Below, one piece after another: positions 8,946 to 57,094 of a DNA stretch of 64,000 nucleotides. The position numbers were made by a program, and so were the translations under genes. The notes beneath the pieces are model-generated. The model saw nothing but the letters and a program-made list of their open reading frames with translations. It made no database searches and was not told the origin of the DNA. Source of the DNA: Eledone cirrhosa (taxonomy: Eukaryota); assembly GCA_964016885.1 (NCBI GenBank), contig OZ024746.1, positions 79,732,001 through 79,796,000 of the forward strand, given 5' to 3'. Positions within the stretch are counted from its first letter, which is position 1; every line of letters begins with the position of its first letter.

Positions 8946-9756
8946 TCATCATCATCATCATCATCGTTTAACGTCTATCTTCCACGCTAGCATGGGTTTA
9001 GACGGGAATTGTCCCACGTGAGGCAAGATTGGTTGTCTTCCTCGTATAGGACTGTCTGGCGGTTTTCTACGACTGGATGCCCTTCCTAACCAACCACGTT
9101 TACAGTGTGGACAGGGAGGGTTTTACCTTGTCACCTACACGGCCACATTACAGCGTGGACTGTGTATTTTTTTTGCCGTGACACCTACACGACCTCATTT
9201 ATTTAGGACTGGATGTTGTAGCACCAACATAACTTTAGGTGTAGATGGGGGTGGGGGTAAGGGTAGTGGGATGGGGTGTATTTTTGGTTAGGAGGTGCCT
9301 ACTGACTGTAGGTTTCGCTTTGTACTTAGGCAATGCGGGTCTTCAGTATTACTGCGTAGCGCCAAAGATCTTGGAGAGGTGTAAGGTCGGAATTTATCAA
9401 ATCGTCCCAGGTTTTTCTGCGTCTACCTACTCCGTGGCTTCCATCTATTTTGATGGCTCTGCACTTTTTTATACAGCTGTCGTCTTTCATGCGCATCACG
9501 TGACCATACCAACGAAGTCTTCTCTCGAGTAAACAGCATCTGATCCATCTTATTCCTAATTTCTCACTTAGTTCATTTATGCTTTGCCGTTCACGTATAT
9601 TACTATTACACATCCAACGGAGCATGCAAGCTTCGTTCCTCTTCAGTCTGCGCAGATCCTCTGCACACAATGCCCATGTCTCACTGCCATGTAGCATTGC
9701 TGTTCGCATGCAGGCATCATACAGTCTGCCTTTCATTTTTAGGGAGAAACCTTTAG

Positions 9757-9760
<4 letters not shown>
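8946..9760 (-). mobile_element. 5'-truncated RTE-clade LINE (RT C-terminus, 3' UTR, (GAT)n tail)
   Basis: KMKGRLYDACMRTAMLHGSETW..MLRWMC..RRLRWYGHVMRM..GRRRKTW is the typical RTE C-terminal region; ends in (CAT)n at 8946-8964; 5' end abuts (TA)n. Confidence 0.9.
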
Positions 9761-9838
<78 letters not shown>

Positions 9839-10101
9839 TTTCTGAATTTGTTTAGCAAGATTCTTTATCTGAAAACGTGTGTTGAAACCGATATTGTTAT
9901 ACTTTTGGAGGGTCATGTTGCCAATAAGAAACACATGCACCAGTTGCTTTCACTCCAATTTATTATAAATTAAATTTATAAATTTAAGAATTTATAAATT
10001 TCCTGTTGGTTGGTTGGTTCCTCGACCGGACGGTTGTTCATATATTGTCAAAGTCCTTTCGTCACACATTCTGTGACCTCTTCAGTTACTGTGGATTCTT
10101 T

Positions 10102-10289: not shown

Positions 10290-10526
10290 TAGAGAGGGTT
10301 GGGCGAGATAGATATAGAGAGGGCGGAGTTAGGTGTTTATTGATATAGAGAGAGGAATTGGAAGGGAATTCCGTGTAGTACATATACAGAGGGGGAGAGT
10401 TTAACGTTCATTGATATAGAAAGGAGGATTGGAAGAGAGTCTATAGTCGTTATAGAGAGGGGAAAGTTTAGTGTTAATTGATATAAAGAGAGGGTTGGGA
10501 GAGTGTGTTTTATATTAGATATATAT
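10290..10526 (+). repeat. Degenerate GATATAGAGAG-GA-rich minisatellite, left part (split by the Tx1 insertion)
   Basis: Repeated GATATAGA(G)AGAGG.TTGG.AGAG units; the same repeat resumes at 16210-16600. Confidence 0.65.
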
Positions 10527-10764
10527 TTCTATTTATTTGCCACCAGGGCATCAAAGATTGGGACAAATACAAAGGGGGGAGTTTACATACATTTAAAAAG
10601 ACGTGTAAAAAACATATAACAAATTAAATTTAACAATCGATGTCCTCAATAGGGAGGGGCGTTGACATGGGTCGCACACACACCCGAACAAATGTGCAAC
10701 CCTCCTCTTCAGGAGCACAAAGAGCGGGTGCTTTCTTCCTCTTCTCATTCTTCTCCTCTCTCAC

Positions 10765-13236
10765 CTACAGGCTGATATAGAGAGAAGGCCCATTCACTCG
10801 GGCCATTCTCGCTACTTTCACCCATCTTTCATAAAACTTGCTGGGGTAGAGCACCTCTCTCTCCCTTCTAATCCTTCTTCTAAAGTGGTACTTGAAAAAA
10901 AAGACCAGTTGTTGGCCGGAGAGATAGGTGTCTGACCTCAGCCCTTTCAACCTTGTCCACCATACAACTTCTTTCGCCATGGCTATCCCACAGAGGAAAA
11001 CCGCCTCTCCTTCGTTTTTGAAAGGGGGAGGCGGTTTGATTGTGACAATGTTCTCGGTGGTCAACCGGATTGGTCCCACCCGCGACAGTAGTCGTTCTAC
11101 ATAGCCCCACAGGTCAGCAACGCCCGGGCAGTGTACGAATGCGTGTGCGACGGTTTCCTCGTCCCGCACGCATCTTGGACAGATCTTCTTCGAGGGGTCA
11201 CTACCCGGGCGCCCGTGTCTGTAGAGCTTGTCCCGAACGGGTAGAGCTCCTCGGTAACATTGCCAAGCCAGGGACTTTTGGAAGTTGTCCATCGGTCCCG
11301 GGCTAAACGTCCTACCGAACAGACTGGCCATCTCGTCTTCCTCCATGCCCAGAGCCTCTCCGAGAGCGTCGTCGCACTTACTGCGCACCAACCCTCTATA
11401 GAATGTTGAGGTTGAGTCTCCACTGATTGCCGGGTCCGCTTGCCAGAGGGCCGTGAGCGCCTGGGCACATTCAATATGCCGGTCGCCCACTTTTCTCGGT
11501 CTTTGCTTGACCCAGGATTGCAGCTCGGTGAGTGAGACGAGTCTCGGAAAGGCTCGCCTCACAAACAGGGCCCACACCGGTTGACCGGTGAGGAATACCT
11601 GGAGGTGCCGTAGCCTTAATGCGTGTCTACGCATCGTCAGCCACGTCATCCCCAGCCCTCCGTTCGGAGGGTGTTGACAGCAGATGGATCTTCTCACCAA
11701 AGGAGCCCGCTTCTTCCAAAGAAATCGGAAGAGCGCGCGCTCCATTTTGGCGAGTGTTTTCTCTGGGCAAGGCACGACGGTCAAGCGGTAGTAGATGACG
11801 GACGCTATATAAGCGTTCGCCACCTCCGCTCGACCTTTCAGGGATAGTTTGCACTCGGCCCACTTCTGGGCGAGTGCAAACACCTTGCCCGTTACCTCGT
11901 CCCAGTTTTTCTCCACCTGGAGGTCCGGTCCGAACCAGACCCCGAGCAGCTTCACCGGTCCCTCCGTCCAGCGTCCGACGATGCCGTCGGAGGGCATCGA
12001 TTTGCCCCTCCACGTCCCGAGCTGCAAACCGACGGACTTGTCCCGGTTCAGCTTGGCTCCTGTGAACCTTTCATACTCCTCCAGTAAGGTGCCGATCTGC
12101 CCGATTTCCGAGGCGCACGACACCATTACTGTCACGTCATCGGCGTAGGCCGACACCGCTTTCCGCAATCCCGGTTCCAAGGGGATGCCCTGCAACAGCT
12201 CCAGCTTTCGCAGTAGTGGCTCGAAAGCCAGCACATACAGGAGGGAGGATAGAGGGCATCCCTGTCGAATGGATCGCGTGACTTGGAACGGCTCCGAGAG
12301 GTAGCCGTTCACCTTGACCCTCGAGCAGGTGTTGCTGCTGTGCATTGCAGCAATCCAGCCCCTGAAAACGGGTCCGAAGCCTGCCGCCGCGAGCACCGCA
12401 TCCAGGTACCGATGGTCAACCCTATCGAACGCTTTAGATTGATCCAAGTTGATCAGGGCCCCACCAAAGCCGGGTTCGTTCCCTACCCTCTCTACGATGT
12501 ATCGCATGAGGTGGAGGTTGTCGTGTATGGACCTGGACGGGATTGCGCATGTCTGCGCTTCTCCCACCAGGTTCCCGACGACAAGCGCCAACCTCTTCGC
12601 TAACACCTTGGCCAAAATCTTTAACTCTGTGTTTAGCAGAGTTATTGGCCTGAAGTTATCTATGTCATCCCCCTTGTTCTCGTCCTTCCTCACCAGCGTG
12701 ACTACACCCTTGGTCACAGAACTGGGAATTCTCCCGTTCTGTTGCCAGTTGCAGTAGACCGCCTCGAGGAGACCGGAAAACAAGCCCGGCATCGCTACAT
12801 AAAGTTCGTATGGTAGACCATCGAGACCCGGAGATTTGCGTTTGCCGCATTGGCTCAGCGCTTCCCCTATTTCAGCGGCTGAAATCGGCCTCTCGCAGGA
12901 CTTCGCCTCCCCGTCCGAGAGCCGCGCCAGACCGTCGAGGTATGGACCGAAATCCATGGCCCCACCCGGCCCGCCGCCTCTCCCGAACAGTCGTGCAAAG
13001 CGCCGTTGAAAGGCCGCGCACATCCGCTCAGGTTCAAGGATCACGCGTCCATCCTGGTCCTTCAAAGACCGAATCGTAGACTTGTTTCCACTTTTTGCCT
13101 CTGTCACTCTGGCCCAGCTAACAGCTTTGGCTCCCTCGTTACCCAGAGCACGTATTTTACTCCTGACAACGCAGCCCTCGTGCTTCGCATCAAAGAACTG
13201 GTCTAGGGCCGTTCTTGACGCCAGCACGCCGGCCAC
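10765..13236 (-). CDS. ORF2 open portion: reverse transcriptase and C-terminal zinc finger of the Tx1-like LINE
   Basis: KSPGLDGL, NFRPITLLN, LDQSKAFDRV, IRQGCPLS, AYADDVTV, KLLGV motifs and CPRC..ETVAHAFVHC; 823 aa open, but only the downstream part of ORF2. Confidence 0.93.
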   Translation of the reverse strand: MAGVLASRTALDQFFDAKHEGCVVRSKIRALGNEGAKAVSWARVTEAKSGNKSTIRSLKDQDGRVILEPERMCAAFQRRFARLFGRGGGPGGAMDFGPYLDGLARLSDGEAKSCERPISAAEIGEALSQCGKRKSPGLDGLPYELYVAMPGLFSGLLEAVYCNWQQNGRIPSSVTKGVVTLVRKDENKGDDIDNFRPITLLNTELKILAKVLAKRLALVVGNLVGEAQTCAIPSRSIHDNLHLMRYIVERVGNEPGFGGALINLDQSKAFDRVDHRYLDAVLAAAGFGPVFRGWIAAMHSSNTCSRVKVNGYLSEPFQVTRSIRQGCPLSSLLYVLAFEPLLRKLELLQGIPLEPGLRKAVSAYADDVTVMVSCASEIGQIGTLLEEYERFTGAKLNRDKSVGLQLGTWRGKSMPSDGIVGRWTEGPVKLLGVWFGPDLQVEKNWDEVTGKVFALAQKWAECKLSLKGRAEVANAYIASVIYYRLTVVPCPEKTLAKMERALFRFLWKKRAPLVRRSICCQHPPNGGLGMTWLTMRRHALRLRHLQVFLTGQPVWALFVRRAFPRLVSLTELQSWVKQRPRKVGDRHIECAQALTALWQADPAISGDSTSTFYRGLVRSKCDDALGEALGMEEDEMASLFGRTFSPGPMDNFQKSLAWQCYRGALPVRDKLYRHGRPGSDPSKKICPRCVRDEETVAHAFVHCPGVADLWGYVERLLSRVGPIRLTTENIVTIKPPPPFKNEGEAVFLCGIAMAKEVVWWTRLKGLRSDTYLSGQQLVFFFKYHFRRRIRREREVLYPSKFYERWVKVARMARVNGPSLYISL

Positions 13237-14199
13237 GTTGCCACTCCTAATCGCCTATTCTACTCTATTTGTTAATTCCCTTTCAGTTCTATTCCTATTA
13301 GATGCTAATTCCCGACTAAAACCTATCGATTCTATTCTTATTTCTCTCTTGAGAGAGCCCCACCACCTGTTGTTGACAATTGCCCCGTCAAACGCTGCTT
13401 AACTAGTGTGCTAATCCGCTTACTGTAAGCTTTGTTTGTCGGTAAAGACAAGTTTAGCTTCCAGTAACCGGGTCCCTGTCTATGAGTTCTATCAAGGTTG
13501 ACCACTCCGGTCAACAACTTGTGATCCGAATAGTCAACCATGAACATTCGTGGACAGCTTAATATGTCCCTATCCTTATTTCTAACTAAGAACCTATCTA
13601 GGTACGACCTAGATGTTCCACTGCGATTACTCCACGTCCACCGTGGCACAGTCAGAAAATCCAGTCGATATCTATCGGCCAGATCAAATCGGCCGATTAA
13701 TCGTTTGAGGCTGTTACACCCCCTCTATCGGGACATGCCCCTACATAGTCCCAACGTGCATCCAGGATACCATTCCAGTCCCCCACTAAAAGCAAGGAGC
13801 GAGACGTTCCCAGGAAATTCTCCAGGCGTCGGAAGAAGTCCGGTCGCGGTGTCCCCGATGGGGCATACGCTGCCACCAGCCTGAAAGCTCCACCTTCACC
13901 ACTGCCGACGTCTAAACCACCAGTCGACCCTCCGGGTCCAGGTGTACCTTCTGTGTGGCAAGACCCAGGTATTTTTGCAGCAGAACGACAACCCCACCCC
14001 CACCCCTCGGCTGACAGAGAGATGCGTAGATCTCAAAGTCGTCGAAGATGGGGTCCAGTTGGCGCTCGCTGCTGATCCTGGACTCGCAAATAACCATTAC
14101 ATCCACTCTGTGTGACCTGAGGTCATTTAAGAGTTTGCCCTGTTTCCAGGACATCCCCAAGCCGCGTGCATTCACACATCCAACTCTTATATTGGCCAT
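13237..14199 (-). pseudogene. ORF2 N-terminal APE endonuclease and linker, disrupted
   Basis: MANIRVGCVNARGL..ICESR..GGGGVVVL, then WTWSN..SRSYLDRFLV..YSDHKLL..GPGYWKLN in other frames; frameshifts near 13915, ~13750 and ~13390 and a TAG near 13256. Confidence 0.9.
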
Positions 14200-14241
14200 G
14201 TTGGTGCTGAAGAGGTAAAAAGGAAGAGGAAAGGAAATTAC

Positions 14242-16008
14242 TTACCTCTTCGTCTCCTGGGGGCCAGGCTGCACAATTTCCATGGGGGTGTTGGAAGGGT
14301 TGTTTGGTGGGGTGGTGGTTTGTGGTGGGGTGAGGACATCAGTGTGTGGTGGGATTGGGGTGTTTGGTGAGGTGTGGGTGTCTGGTGTAGGGGTGGGGAA
14401 ACATCTCAATAGGACGCTGTTATGTGGTTTGGTGCAGTTGGTCCCCACATGCATTGGATGGTTCTTTTTCTAAGTTACATAGGTTTCCGTTGGGACCCTA
14501 ATCATCATTAGGTGCGGTTTGTTCGCTGCGTAGGGGAAAGTGATCCCTTCGGTTTCCACTGAAGGGTTATTTTCTATCGCTTTCATCAACGTTTTATTGT
14601 TCTTGTTAATGTATGTATAGAGTTTTTGTTGTGTTGTGTTTGTTTTTGTTTGTTGTTCTTGCGGGTGTTTGCGTTTTATAGTACGTGTTATGTTTTGGGG
14701 AGGGGTGGGTTTTTTTATTTGTGATGTTTGTTCTGTTTGTGCTGGTGGCTGTGTGTTTGTGGCATTTTTGTTAATGTGGTGCCTTTTTTTTTCCTTTTCA
14801 CCTGTTGAAAGGGTTCTCCCTCGTCGTCACTAGGTGACGTTGATACGGAGTCCTCTTCCGTGTTGTTGGGGAGGGGTATATTTTGGGTTTTGTTGTGGTT
14901 GCTTTTGTATTTGTTTTAGGTGGGGAGGGGTTGGGTGGAACAGTGTTTTGTGTTGTTATTTTTCCGTGTTGTTGTGGTGGTGGTGGTGGTGGTTGTGTTG
15001 TTGTGTTCGGGGTTGGCAGAAGAGCCTTTTTTTTTTACTCGTTAATTGAGGACAGGCAGCCCTCAGGTGACCCCTGCTTAAGCAGTGGTAACATGACGGC
15101 CGCCTTCCCTCCACTGAAATGTTTATATAAGTTAGCCCGTCCAGAGGCACGCGTTGTGGGATATTCGCTATTCGTTCTGGGCTCATTTGCACCAGAACTT
15201 CTATTGTGGTCCCACCAAATACACCTCCGGAGGACTTTCCTATTGAAATTATCTTGTCTTCGTCAAAGTTTATTATTCCACATAGTATCCACCAAATGTT
15301 TACATTTGGTGTGATACTCATTATTTTTATTCTTTGTGTCCTTTTTCCCCTGTATGTGGGGTAAAAGGTGAAGTGGGGGGACACAATGGGTGCTATCGAG
15401 TACTTTTGTGCTGTTGACTGGTTGTTCATCAGCACCGAAATGCTACCAAACAGTTTACCTTTTTGTATGAAGGTTAAGTCCTTCATTGCGTCTTTTAGAA
15501 CCAGCTCAATTTCATTTTGTGATAATTGACCTGGTTTTCTTGTTACGTTCGATATTGTCCTGAAAACCACAGTTTTCAGGACAGCCTCTCTACGTAATTC
15601 CTGTGGAGAATTGATGCTAAAAGCACCGTTTTCGCCAAAAGTGACGAATTGTTTTGCGTCTTGTAATAGTTGTTTAGCATTTGTTATGTCTATTGGCGTG
15701 TATAGTTCGTTTTTTTTTACGGTCTGTGCAAATGTTGTTTTGGTGTTGTTGTCTTTCGTGTTACTGTCACTGTTGGTAATATTGGTGTTGCTATTGTTGC
15801 AGTTGTTGGTTGTGGTGTTGTTGTGATTGTTCTTGTTGTTGGTGCTGGTATTATTTGCCGGATTTGGTTTCGCGGTTTCGATATTTTCCACGTTTTTCGA
15901 TGATGCGAGGGGGGACGGCTGCAAGCTTTGTACTCCTACCTTCCCTCCACCACTTTTCTTAGTGGGCGTGGCACTCACGACAGTGTGCGAAGTGGAAATG
16001 GCATCCAT
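14242..16008 (-). pseudogene. ORF1 (gag-like, CCHC zinc knuckle) of the Tx1-like LINE, disrupted in its 3' half
   Basis: ATG at 16008 (MDAISTSH..), GRRPSCYHCLSRGHLRAAC knuckle, probable slip at A-run ~15030, Pro/Thr-rich C-terminus ending QPGPQETKR* at 14242. Confidence 0.82.
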
Positions 16009-16209
16009 TGCCACCAAGTCTACAGTTTTTAGATGAAAATTTAAAATTTCGCCCCAGAAAGGGGCGAAAATTTGTTGGCTTAACGTCTGACGGCCAAGGC
16101 AAGGGGCTAAACCAAACAATGTTATTAAATTGATCAATAAACTCACAGTTTTTTTTTACAACAATCCGTAAGAATCCGGAGCAAAGTAAATCACGTCTAT
16201 ATCAAGTGG

Positions 16210-16600
16210 TAATTGATATAGAGAGTGTAGATATAGAGAGGGGTAGATTTCAATGAAGGCAGATGTAATGAGGGGGTTGGGAGAGATGCATATTACTAAA
16301 TATAGAGAGCGGGGTTGGGAGAGACAGTGTCGTAAAAGATATAGAAGGGGAGTTTTTGATGGAGAGAGAGAGAACGATTGCGAGAGAGTGTGGTAGAGAT
16401 GGCGAGGGGGGTTGGAAATGATTGATATAAAGAGGGGTGTTAGGAGAGTGTTTTAGATTTTAGATATAGAGAGAAGGAGAATCTTTTTGTTGTAGATATA
16501 CTGAGAGGGATAATGGAAGAGTGCCGTGTAGTAGATATAGAGAAGGGGAGAGTGTGGTTTTAGGAGATACAGAGAAGGTGATTAAAAGAGAGTTTTGTGT
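16210..16600 (+). repeat. Degenerate GATATAGAGAG-GA-rich minisatellite, right part
   Basis: Same units as 10290-10526. Confidence 0.65.
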
Positions 16601-54386: not shown

Positions 54387-54513
54387 GTAGCGAACGCTGT
54401 TGCTATTTGATGTTTTAACATCATCATTACCCGTAATTTCTGGCAAAATGACGAACAGCTTCGTCGTCGTTGTCATTGCTGACATTGTGTTCGTCTTCTA
54501 CACCATAATATGA

Positions 54514-54771
54514 CCCTCCTCCTCCTCTTACTCCTCCTCCTCCCCTCCTCCTCCTCCTCCTCCTCCTCCTCATCATCATCATCATCATCATCATCGTCGT
54601 CATCGTCATCATCATCGTCGTCATCATCATCGTCATCATCATCGTCGTCATCATCATCGTCGTCGGCATCATCATCATCATCATCATCATCATAACTACA
54701 AACAACAGCATCATCATCACCATCATCATCATCATAACTACAATCAATAGTATCATCGTTGTCGTCGTCTC

Positions 54772-54845
<74 letters not shown>

Positions 54846-54857
54846 CAGTAGTGGTGA

Positions 54858-54911
<54 letters not shown>

Positions 54912-55007
54912 CAGTAGTGGTGATAGTAGTAGTAGTAGTAGTAGTAGTAGTATTATTATTATTATTATTAGTAGTAGTAGTAGTAGTAGTAGTAGTAGCA
55001 GCAGCAA

Positions 55008-55088
<81 letters not shown>

Positions 55089-55194
55089 CAGTAGTGGTGA
55101 TAGTAGTAGTAGTAGTAGTAGTAGTATTATTATTATTATTATTAGTAGTAGTAGTAGTAGTAGTAGTAGTAGCAGCAGCAACAGCAGCAGCAGC

Positions 55195-55240
<46 letters not shown>
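54514..55240 (+). repeat. Compound (CTC)/(CAT)/(AGT)/(GCA) trinucleotide repeats with duplicated blocks
   Basis: Direct inspection. Confidence 0.92.
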
Positions 55241-55299
55241 ATTCTCGTCGCCATTATCGTTTTTGGCAAATAGAAAAGCAATAACACCAGAGGTAACTG

Positions 55300-56535
55300 T
55301 CACTACCACCACCATTACCACCACCATTACCACCACCATGACCACTACCATGACCACCACCATGACCACTACCATGACCACCACCATTACCACCACCATG
55401 ACCACTACCATGACCACCACCATGACCACTACCATGACCACCACCATTACCACCACCATGACCACCACCATGACCACTACCATGACCACCACCATGACCA
55501 CCACCATGACCACCACCATGACCACCACCATGACCACTACCATGACCACCACCATGACCACCACCATGACCACTACCATGACCACCACCATTACCACCAC
55601 CATTACCACCACCATGACCACCACCATTACCACCACCATTAACACCACCATGACCACTACCATGACCACTACCATGACCACCACCATGACCACTACCATG
55701 ACCACCACCATTACCACCACCATGACCACTACCATGACCACCACCATGACCACCACCATGACCACCACCATTACCACCACCATTAACACCACCATTACCA
55801 CCACCATTACCACCACCATCACCACCACCATTGCCACTACCATTACCACCACCATGACCACCACCATGACCACCACTATGACCACCACCATGACCACCAT
55901 CATTACCACCACCATGACCACCACCATTACCACCACCATGACCACCACCATTACCACCACCATTACCACCACCATTACCACCACCATGACCACCACCATT
56001 ACCACCACCATGACCACCACCACCATGACCACCACCATGACCACCACCATTACCACCACCATGACCACCACCACCATGACCACCACCATGACCACCACCA
56101 TTAACACCACCATTACCACCACCATCACCACCACCATTGTCACTACCATTACCACCACCATGACCACCACCATTACCACCACCATGACCACCACCACCAT
56201 GACCACCACCATGACCACCATCATTACCACCACCATGACCACCACCATGACCACCACCATTACCACCACCATGACCACCACCACCATGACCACCATCATT
56301 ACCACCACCATGACCACCACCATTACCACCACCATGACCACCACCACCATGACCACCACCATTACCACCACCATTACCACCACCATGACCACCACCATTA
56401 CCACCACCATGACCACCACCACCATGACCTCCACCATTACCACCACCATTACCACCACCATTACCACCACCATTACCACCACCATGACCACCACCACCAT
56501 TACCACCACCATTACCACCACCATTACCTCCACCA
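55300..56535 (+). repeat. 12-bp minisatellite (ACCACYACCATK)n with 15-bp variants
   Basis: Direct inspection. Confidence 0.95.
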
Positions 56536-57094
56536 TCACTACCAACAACGGCAACTAGTATCACCAATGCTGTAACTACCAGCACCACCGTGATCCTCAC
56601 TACCACCGGTACCACCACCAACAGCACCGACACCACAGTCTTTACTGACATCACAACAATCTCCAGCATAACCAAAGCCACCAGCACCACAACTACCACC
56701 ATCATCATTCCCACCACCACCTCTATTACTACTACCACTACCACCACCACCACCATCACCAACCACCACCAATACCACAGACTTTACTAACATCATAACG
56801 ATCTTCAGCATAACCAAAGTTACCACCACCATCACCATCAATACCACCACCACCATTAATACCACTACTACCACCATCACCACCACCACCACCACCATCA
56901 CCATCAATACCACCACCACCATTAATACCACTACTACCACCATCACCACCACCACCACCACCATCACCATCAATACCACCACCACCATTAATACCACTAC
57001 TACCACCATCACCACCACCACCACCACCACCACCATTAATACCACTACCACCGCCACCACTACCACCATTAATACTCTGACCTCACTGCCACTT

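Follow-up and report, generated by a model that had tools for sequence, protein, structure and literature searches.

Background

Both LINE proteins are thought to be made from one unspliced RNA. In the Ty1/copia element EVD of Arabidopsis, a conserved U1-type donor is described at the end of the structural region, where splicing is proposed to yield a structural-only mRNA (shGAG) and to create its stop codon (PMC5580714). Splice sites are also used within human L1, as seen in SpIREs (PMC5860796) and SpORF2 (PMC2896524), and the spliced RNA leaves genomic copies that account for 131 of 6609 full-length copies (PMC5860796). These products use a 5' UTR donor and lose the promoter or ORF1, and they are called dead ends. 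Chimeras of mRNA and LINE-1 have been described whose upstream part breaks off precisely at a donor; splicing in cis or in trans was proposed for them and they were suggested as a route of LINE 5' exchange, but they join host exons to L1 and are mostly single events (PMC11838501). Kibi and Koshi are Tx1 elements with two ORFs, an APE endonuclease and a reverse transcriptase that insert into microsatellites (PMC4494074).

The window analyzed here is a 64,000-nucleotide stretch of the Eledone cirrhosa genome (contig OZ024746.1, positions 79,732,001 to 79,796,000), and it contains a LINE with a 5' splice site on its ORF1 stop codon. This donor is a real feature and a variant of known splicing strategies, and it differs from what a preliminary description of the window had proposed. 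As in EVD, a conserved U1-type donor lies at the end of the structural ORF and is better kept than the acceptor. EVD, however, has LTRs, a single ORF and a short intron, polyadenylates early, and its case was shown experimentally (PMC5580714), whereas the LINE has two ORFs, its predicted intron comprises all of ORF2 (~3.5 kb) and its putative spliced RNA would end at the normal 3' end. In contrast to SpIREs and SpORF2, the donor is at the ORF1 end, no internally spliced copies were found, and the chimeric subfamilies F2 and C have been amplified. Unlike the mRNA/LINE-1 chimeras, these join LINE to LINE via a donor that the element itself conserves, and they swap the 5' UTR and ORF1. With Kibi and Koshi the element shares the two ORFs, the APE endonuclease and the reverse transcriptase. 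Its insertion targets look like (TATC)n and (ATT)n, in which it differs from them, and the accessible text on those two elements makes no mention of a splice signal at the ORF1 stop (PMC4494074). A literature search with incomplete coverage of subscription journals and Repbase reports found no account of a LINE that carries a donor on its ORF1 stop or uses ORF2 as an intron, and the term "splic" did not occur in two octopus papers.

Results

The element lies on the minus strand of the window and has the following features, where a slash marks the exon-intron boundary:

10524..16200, minus: L1/Tx1-type LINE copy of lineage A, decayed; ends approximate, in degenerate TATC/CT-rich repeats
16141..16146, minus: 5' UTR donor-like GTGAGT with a weak exon side, present in 4 of 5 A-type copies checked
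14242..16008, minus: ORF1, broken here, ending ETKR-stop; frame confirmed in L026, L055 and L106
~15093-15052, minus: CX2CX4HX4C zinc knuckle of ORF1, seen in the window translation
14240..14248, minus: ORF1-end 5' splice site GAG/GTAAGT containing the ORF1 stop; conserved element, 8 of 8 lineages
14210..14237, minus: spacer pyrimidine tract, kept in all lineages (85-92% C+T)
14207..14209, minus: acceptor-like CAG 7 nt before the ORF2 ATG; in A, B and D, not conserved
10765..14199, minus: ORF2 (endonuclease, reverse transcriptase, zinc finger), broken here; predicted intron of a putative ORF1-only RNA
10761..10784, minus: candidate 3' splice site, comprising the AG of the ORF2 stop (10766-10765), 1 nt, TGA (10763-10761) and a purine-rich stretch
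10532..10537, minus: AATAAA poly(A) signal at the element 3' end

The window element is ~98% identical to other family copies. Its ORF1 is disrupted by frameshifts and by stops at 14958 and 14472, and its ORF2 by a stop at 13914 and further frameshifts. Because ORF1 is open in other copies (535 codons in L026, 502 in L055 and 519 in L106), the ETKR-stop was taken as its true end; the ORF1 of an intact relative (L173) encodes 636 aa. No Pfam match to ORF1 was found. PF03372, PF00078 and PF13966 scored above cut-off in the intact relative, the reverse transcriptase and zf-RVT domains were found in the window copy itself, and the best match of ORF2 to a solved structure was human L1 ORF2p (E 3e-57), with R2 at 4e-22. 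With its APE endonuclease, reverse transcriptase, C-terminal zinc finger and separate upstream ORF1 carrying a CCHC knuckle, the element is an L1-group non-LTR retrotransposon. The narrower Tx1 label is putative, and follows the preliminary description and this anatomy.

The window junction gave 2566 candidate matches in the genome, 508 of which have the donor, an AG and the start together. Among 30 of those loci the spacer measured 39 nt in 15, 38 nt in 3, 37 nt in 11 and 30 nt in 1; the 39-nt length and the common frame of ORF1 and ORF2 are subfamily traits. Further lineages were recovered by three protein searches with distant ORF2 starts and one pattern search, and the labels A, B, C, D, E1, E2, F1, F2, G, X and BC were coined in this analysis. 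In the copies inspected, (TATC)n adjoins the 5' end of B, C, D and X elements, and (ATT)n that of E and F elements.

The preliminary description had placed the ORF1 TAA inside an AG/GTAAGT donor, followed by a pyrimidine tract and a CAG 7 nt before the ATG, enclosing a 39-nt segment. All of this can be read directly on the minus strand: AAGAG/GTAAGT at 14245, a tract of 90% pyrimidine, CAG at 14209-14207 and ATG at 14199, with 39 nt from GT to AG. It is likewise true of the window copy that the two ORFs share a frame unspliced, the TAA (14244-14242) being in frame with ORF2. By the scores of a rough splice-site matrix, the donor comes first among 297 GT of the window element and the spacer CAG first among 356 AG, and since both rank first the motif appears to be more than chance.

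GTRAGT is found on or beside the ORF1 stop, 28-46 nt 5' of the ORF2 ATG, in all eight lineages. Columns +1, +2, +4, +5 and +6 are identical throughout, +3 is always a purine, and -2/-1 are kept in seven of the eight. Over the last 300 nt of ORF1, identity between the clades ABDX, E and FG is 39-47%, and ORF2 DNA identity among the eight lineages is 64-90%. The exact donor hexamer was present in 82 of 90 protein-search loci (five of them repeats), with one change in 7 and a deletion in 1. By the same rough matrix the donor is best or tied-best of 289-322 GT in seven lineages and ranks 11th in D. The ORF1 stop is a TAA or TGA within the donor (AG/G TAA) in A, B, X and F, and in D, E and G it is the triplet starting from donor +6, two codons on; because its position thus differs among lineages, in two reading phases, the stop codon alone is insufficient to explain the donor. 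Some E1 copies show a third donor phase. In an E1 variant (L112, L113, L115, L255, L269) the donor is in phase 0, ORF1 extends to a TAG 12 nt before ORF2, and removal of 30 nt would be in frame.

A donor match by itself proves nothing, since F1 and G have an equally good one within ORF2. At the ORF1-end position, contigs of a related organism carry GTAAGT or GTGAGT, weakened in 3-4 contigs (runs X2 and X3). Among distant L1/Tx1 relatives from metagenomes (26-32% identity; 16 loci, ~12 distinct elements), L279 was the only one to have its ORF1 stop on a donor, so the trait is not general to L1/Tx1. The ORF1 of L279, on a metagenome contig at 27% identity, ends G/GTGAGTAA, like lineage D, by chance or convergence.

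Aligned across the family, the spacer keeps the donor and the pyrimidine tract, whereas the CAG, a length divisible by three and the fusion frame are not conserved. An AG lies between donor and ATG at -7 in A, B and D, at -9 in E1 and at -1 in E2, and is absent in X, F1 and G. Removal of the spacer is in frame in A and B only (2 of 8 lineages).

Three chimeric subfamilies break at the donor. F2 matches G' (L248) at 91-93% identity as far as the donor and, from behind a CAG onward, F1 at 96-97%. BC is B-type to its donor (88-93% in two of three copies, 80% in the third) and C-type from behind a CAG, and C joins a D-like ORF1 (85-87%) to X (97%) from behind a CAG. In all three, the upstream portion reaches exactly to the exon boundary of a donor of the A/B or G type. 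C and BC were found in a donor-anchored search for ORF1 ends not followed by GT, in which 17 of 26 matches had junction C, 3 were BC and 6 were D-type or a deletion. F2 was found without a donor-anchored query, as 14 distinct copies among 30 protein-search loci, and no other offset junction between lineages recurs among 146 loci. The actual 5' source of C was not among the copies sampled; in D, the closest to it, the donor lies 1 nt further 5'. At all three junctions AG is shared by both sides, so template switching on this 2-nt homology also fits, and crossovers within plain homology occur as well (L199, L219). Splicing through tandem arrays is possible, because a same-strand neighbor of the clade adjoins 31 of 78 long loci. 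The three subfamilies broken at the donor point to real splicing, and we consider it very probable that the spliceosome uses this site.

In F2 loci and in one BC copy (L070/L231), ORF1 is brought back into frame by one-base indels just 3' of the junction, which suggests selection after the join. One locus (L172, G000:C1:423365221-423418069) is a head-to-tail array of about ten E2 copies with a period of 5840 nt and short (ATT)n joints. Many E2 copies have the full 1150-aa frame, and this lineage is therefore very young. An X copy (L220) has its own 5' end inverted inside ORF1. Matches of a "CC" type, considered as a splice to the ORF2 end, were rejected, as they are subfamily C.

A candidate partner for the donor is the AG of the ORF2 stop, which is TAG in 65 and TAA in 13 of 78 distinct 3' ends. 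Joining the donor to this AG gives a stop after one or two codons in A, X, D, E1, E2 and G, six of the seven lineages with the AG, a phase match that was noticed after the fact and that, the lineages being kin, rests on two or three events. The join leaves the ORF1 end unchanged in A and X. In B, whose donor and downstream stop differ in phase, it adds 33 codons, and chimera C has the same mismatch. About 8% of AGs singly give such a near stop, and among 120 AG columns common to at least six lineages no other gives one in more than four. In 73 of the 78 ends a further stop triplet begins at offset 1 or 2 behind the ORF2 stop, and none begins at 0, 3 or 4; the triplet varies (TGA, TAA or TAG), as do the two letters before. 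The 3' end of E1 has stops for both phases.

As an acceptor the ORF2-stop AG is middling, at rank 5-49 of ~260, and it is ruled out as a universal acceptor by the TAA of lineage F. A strong 3' UTR acceptor was found in 11 of 12 TAA ends (lineage F, no AG) against 2 of 64 TAG ends, a contrast that rests on one event; in F this acceptor lies ~160 nt 3' of the ORF2 stop, and F keeps the downstream stop though it has no AG in the ORF2 stop. Pattern searches for A/B, E2 and X yielded no ORF1-only genomic copies. Their absence counts against removal of ORF2, because such RNA keeps the 3' tail and could be copied in trans, and it is evidence against an abundant germ-line ORF1-only RNA; a cis preference of ORF2 could explain it. 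Poly(A) hexamers in the ORF1 tail, considered as a signal, were dropped because they are about as frequent as A-richness gives.

Discussion

We propose that the donor on the ORF1 stop is likely joined to an acceptor further 3', either at the ORF2 stop codon or beyond it. Such a splice would take out the whole of ORF2 as an intron and leave an ORF1-only mRNA that uses the element's own 3' poly(A) signal. The everyday partner would be the AG of the ORF2 stop or, in F, the 3' UTR acceptor, and the purpose would be an excess of ORF1 protein. Unspliced RNA would stay the template and would likely make ORF2 by reinitiation, a step taken from what is known of L1 (PMC5381506). The chimeras would arise when splicing between tandem copies or in trans is followed by retrotransposition, swapping the 5' UTR and ORF1 between lineages. 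That production of an ORF1-only mRNA by ORF2 removal is the selected role of the donor we regard as close to evenly balanced, leaning slightly to doubt. The fuller proposal, in which ORF2 as a whole is an alternative intron whose removal rebuilds the stop in one splice and the same donor, spliced into the next tandem copy, founds new active subfamilies, is put forward a shade more tentatively.

Human L1 splicing is described as a dead end, while a clade conserving a donor on its ORF1 stop would use the spliceosome within its cycle, as copia elements do. If true, this would be a new answer to how the excess of ORF1 is set, and the chimeras would show concretely, at the level of sequence, how LINE lineages come to exchange their 5' UTR and ORF1, as has long been noted.

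It is less likely, and on balance we doubt, that the donor chiefly binds U1 snRNP and is rarely spliced. Binding would then protect or process the full-length RNA, by blocking early polyadenylation or aiding transcription or nuclear handling; the tract would tune U1 or block the next step, and rare leaks would give the chimeras. Donor and tract are indeed kept without any nearby acceptor, no internally spliced genomic copies appeared in the pattern searches, unrelated 5' UTRs also have donors near their start, and in EVD early termination is reported to be blocked by U1 at the donor (PMC5580714). Against this, AATAAA and ATTAAA are absent from ORF2 in A, D, X and G and occur 1-3 times there in the other lineages, with no conserved hexamer, and U1 binding leaves unexplained both the kept stop behind the ORF2 stop and the acceptor of F. 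U1 binding and an ORF1-only mRNA do not exclude one another.

The spacer may instead be a termination-reinitiation signal made up of the stop context, the pyrimidine tract and a good start context, with the donor match inherited or incidental and the chimeras produced by template switches on AG. We think this unlikely. A short spacer of 28-46 nt and an A/C-rich start context are found in all lineages, reinitiation is one of two routes proposed for L1 ORF2 (PMC5381506), GTAAGT has arisen from coding in ORF2 of F1 and G too, and copies with a weak donor exist in runs X2 and X3. The +1 G, the +5 G and the AG at -2/-1 are nevertheless not fixed by the stop, yet they are kept where flanking identity has fallen to 39-47% and across changes of phase, and in three of three chimeras the 5' break is on the donor and the 3' break behind a CAG.

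The preliminary description had favored splicing into the spacer itself. Its premise that a splice signal at the ORF1 stop matters has held up, as the donor is conserved and appears to be used; the partners it proposed, the spacer acceptor and a 5' UTR donor, found no support. In the long version, a splice from the 5' UTR donor into the spacer acceptor would produce an mRNA for ORF2 alone, comparable to human SpORF2 (PMC2896524). The donor in question, ACT/GTGAGT at 16146, is present, and 5' UTR donors exist in A, B, D and E2; GTRAGT near the 5' end is also seen in C and X, and is absent from the E1 and F1 copies inspected. The spacer AG is, by the rough matrix, the top-scoring acceptor in A, B, D and E1 and third in E2. 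It is missing, however, from three of eight lineages (X, with 1513 matches in its pattern search, F1 and G), and its offset takes three values among the remaining lineages. An RNA that retains ORF2 after splicing would be expected to give rise to genomic copies, since human L1 does so (PMC5860796) and the RNA would encode ORF2 in cis, and no joined copy was found against 508 unspliced matches. The search for the 5' UTR donor joined before ORF2, made with A/B/D-type starts, gave two matches, a deletion and a short-spacer copy, neither of them a splice; these patterns require exact flanks and miss joins to other acceptors, and an AG in the fifth ORF2 codon was covered as acceptor for A/B only. 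As the long splice would also leave the ORF1-end donor unexplained, we consider it very unlikely.

In the 5' UTRs of B, C and X (L094, L095, L099, L100, L222), a GTAAGT ~30 nt from the start is followed ~65-70 nt on by TTTGTAG, a pair that is possibly an ordinary small 5' UTR intron.

Still less credit can be given to the short version, removal of the 39 nt to make an ORF1-ORF2 fusion protein. Both sites rank first in the element, and in A and B removing 39, 38 or 37 nt gives the same in-frame join. Across the family, though, the acceptor is lost in X, F1 and G and the join is in frame in just the two lineages A and B, and no genomic copy was found to lack exactly these 39 nt or the long-splice segment: a pattern search for gaps of 0-30 gave three matches, two short-spacer copies and one unrelated. 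No fused ORF1-ORF2 open frame was present among the 450 matches listed (longest 1209 aa), and protein searches, whose 42 hits had 23-39% identity and up to 1299 aa, turned up neither a close relative nor one of fusion length, and no ORF1 relative in which a spliced C-terminus could be sought. A protein atlas contributed nothing beyond RT and endonuclease clusters. At 28-39 nt, the proposed spacer introns fall below the usual animal minimum of ~50-90 nt (PMC13644364). Contigs of one sample (three runs; by size and depth probably DNA) were aligned to 13700-16300, and no joint among the 15 of 18 shown matches either proposed splice; on 14150-14400 the same sample's contigs, probably DNA, gave two joints, neither of which matches them. 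Low-level use of the short or the long splice may occur in lineages A, B and D. Read-through of the ORF1 stop into ORF2, also raised in the preliminary description, is barely credible and is refuted as a clade-wide mechanism, because the two ORFs are in one frame in X and in the 39-nt subfamily of A but in different frames in 15 of 30 A/B loci and in D, E, F and G, across spacers of 28-46 nt.

Other parts of the window also contain repeats. A 5'-truncated copy of the clade at 42976-44366 on the plus strand has a B-type 3' end, is 83-89% identical to the main element and ends in a TC/TA repeat, and short 3' end fragments of the clade lie on opposite strands at 50545-50734 and 51053-51338 (76-78% identical). 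Very long tri- and multi-nucleotide repeat tracts occupy 30049-42641 and 54427-57069 and contain spurious ORFs of up to 1814 aa. Fragments at 9326-9916 and 27072-27850 resemble, by eye, the reverse transcriptase C-termini of other LINE families.
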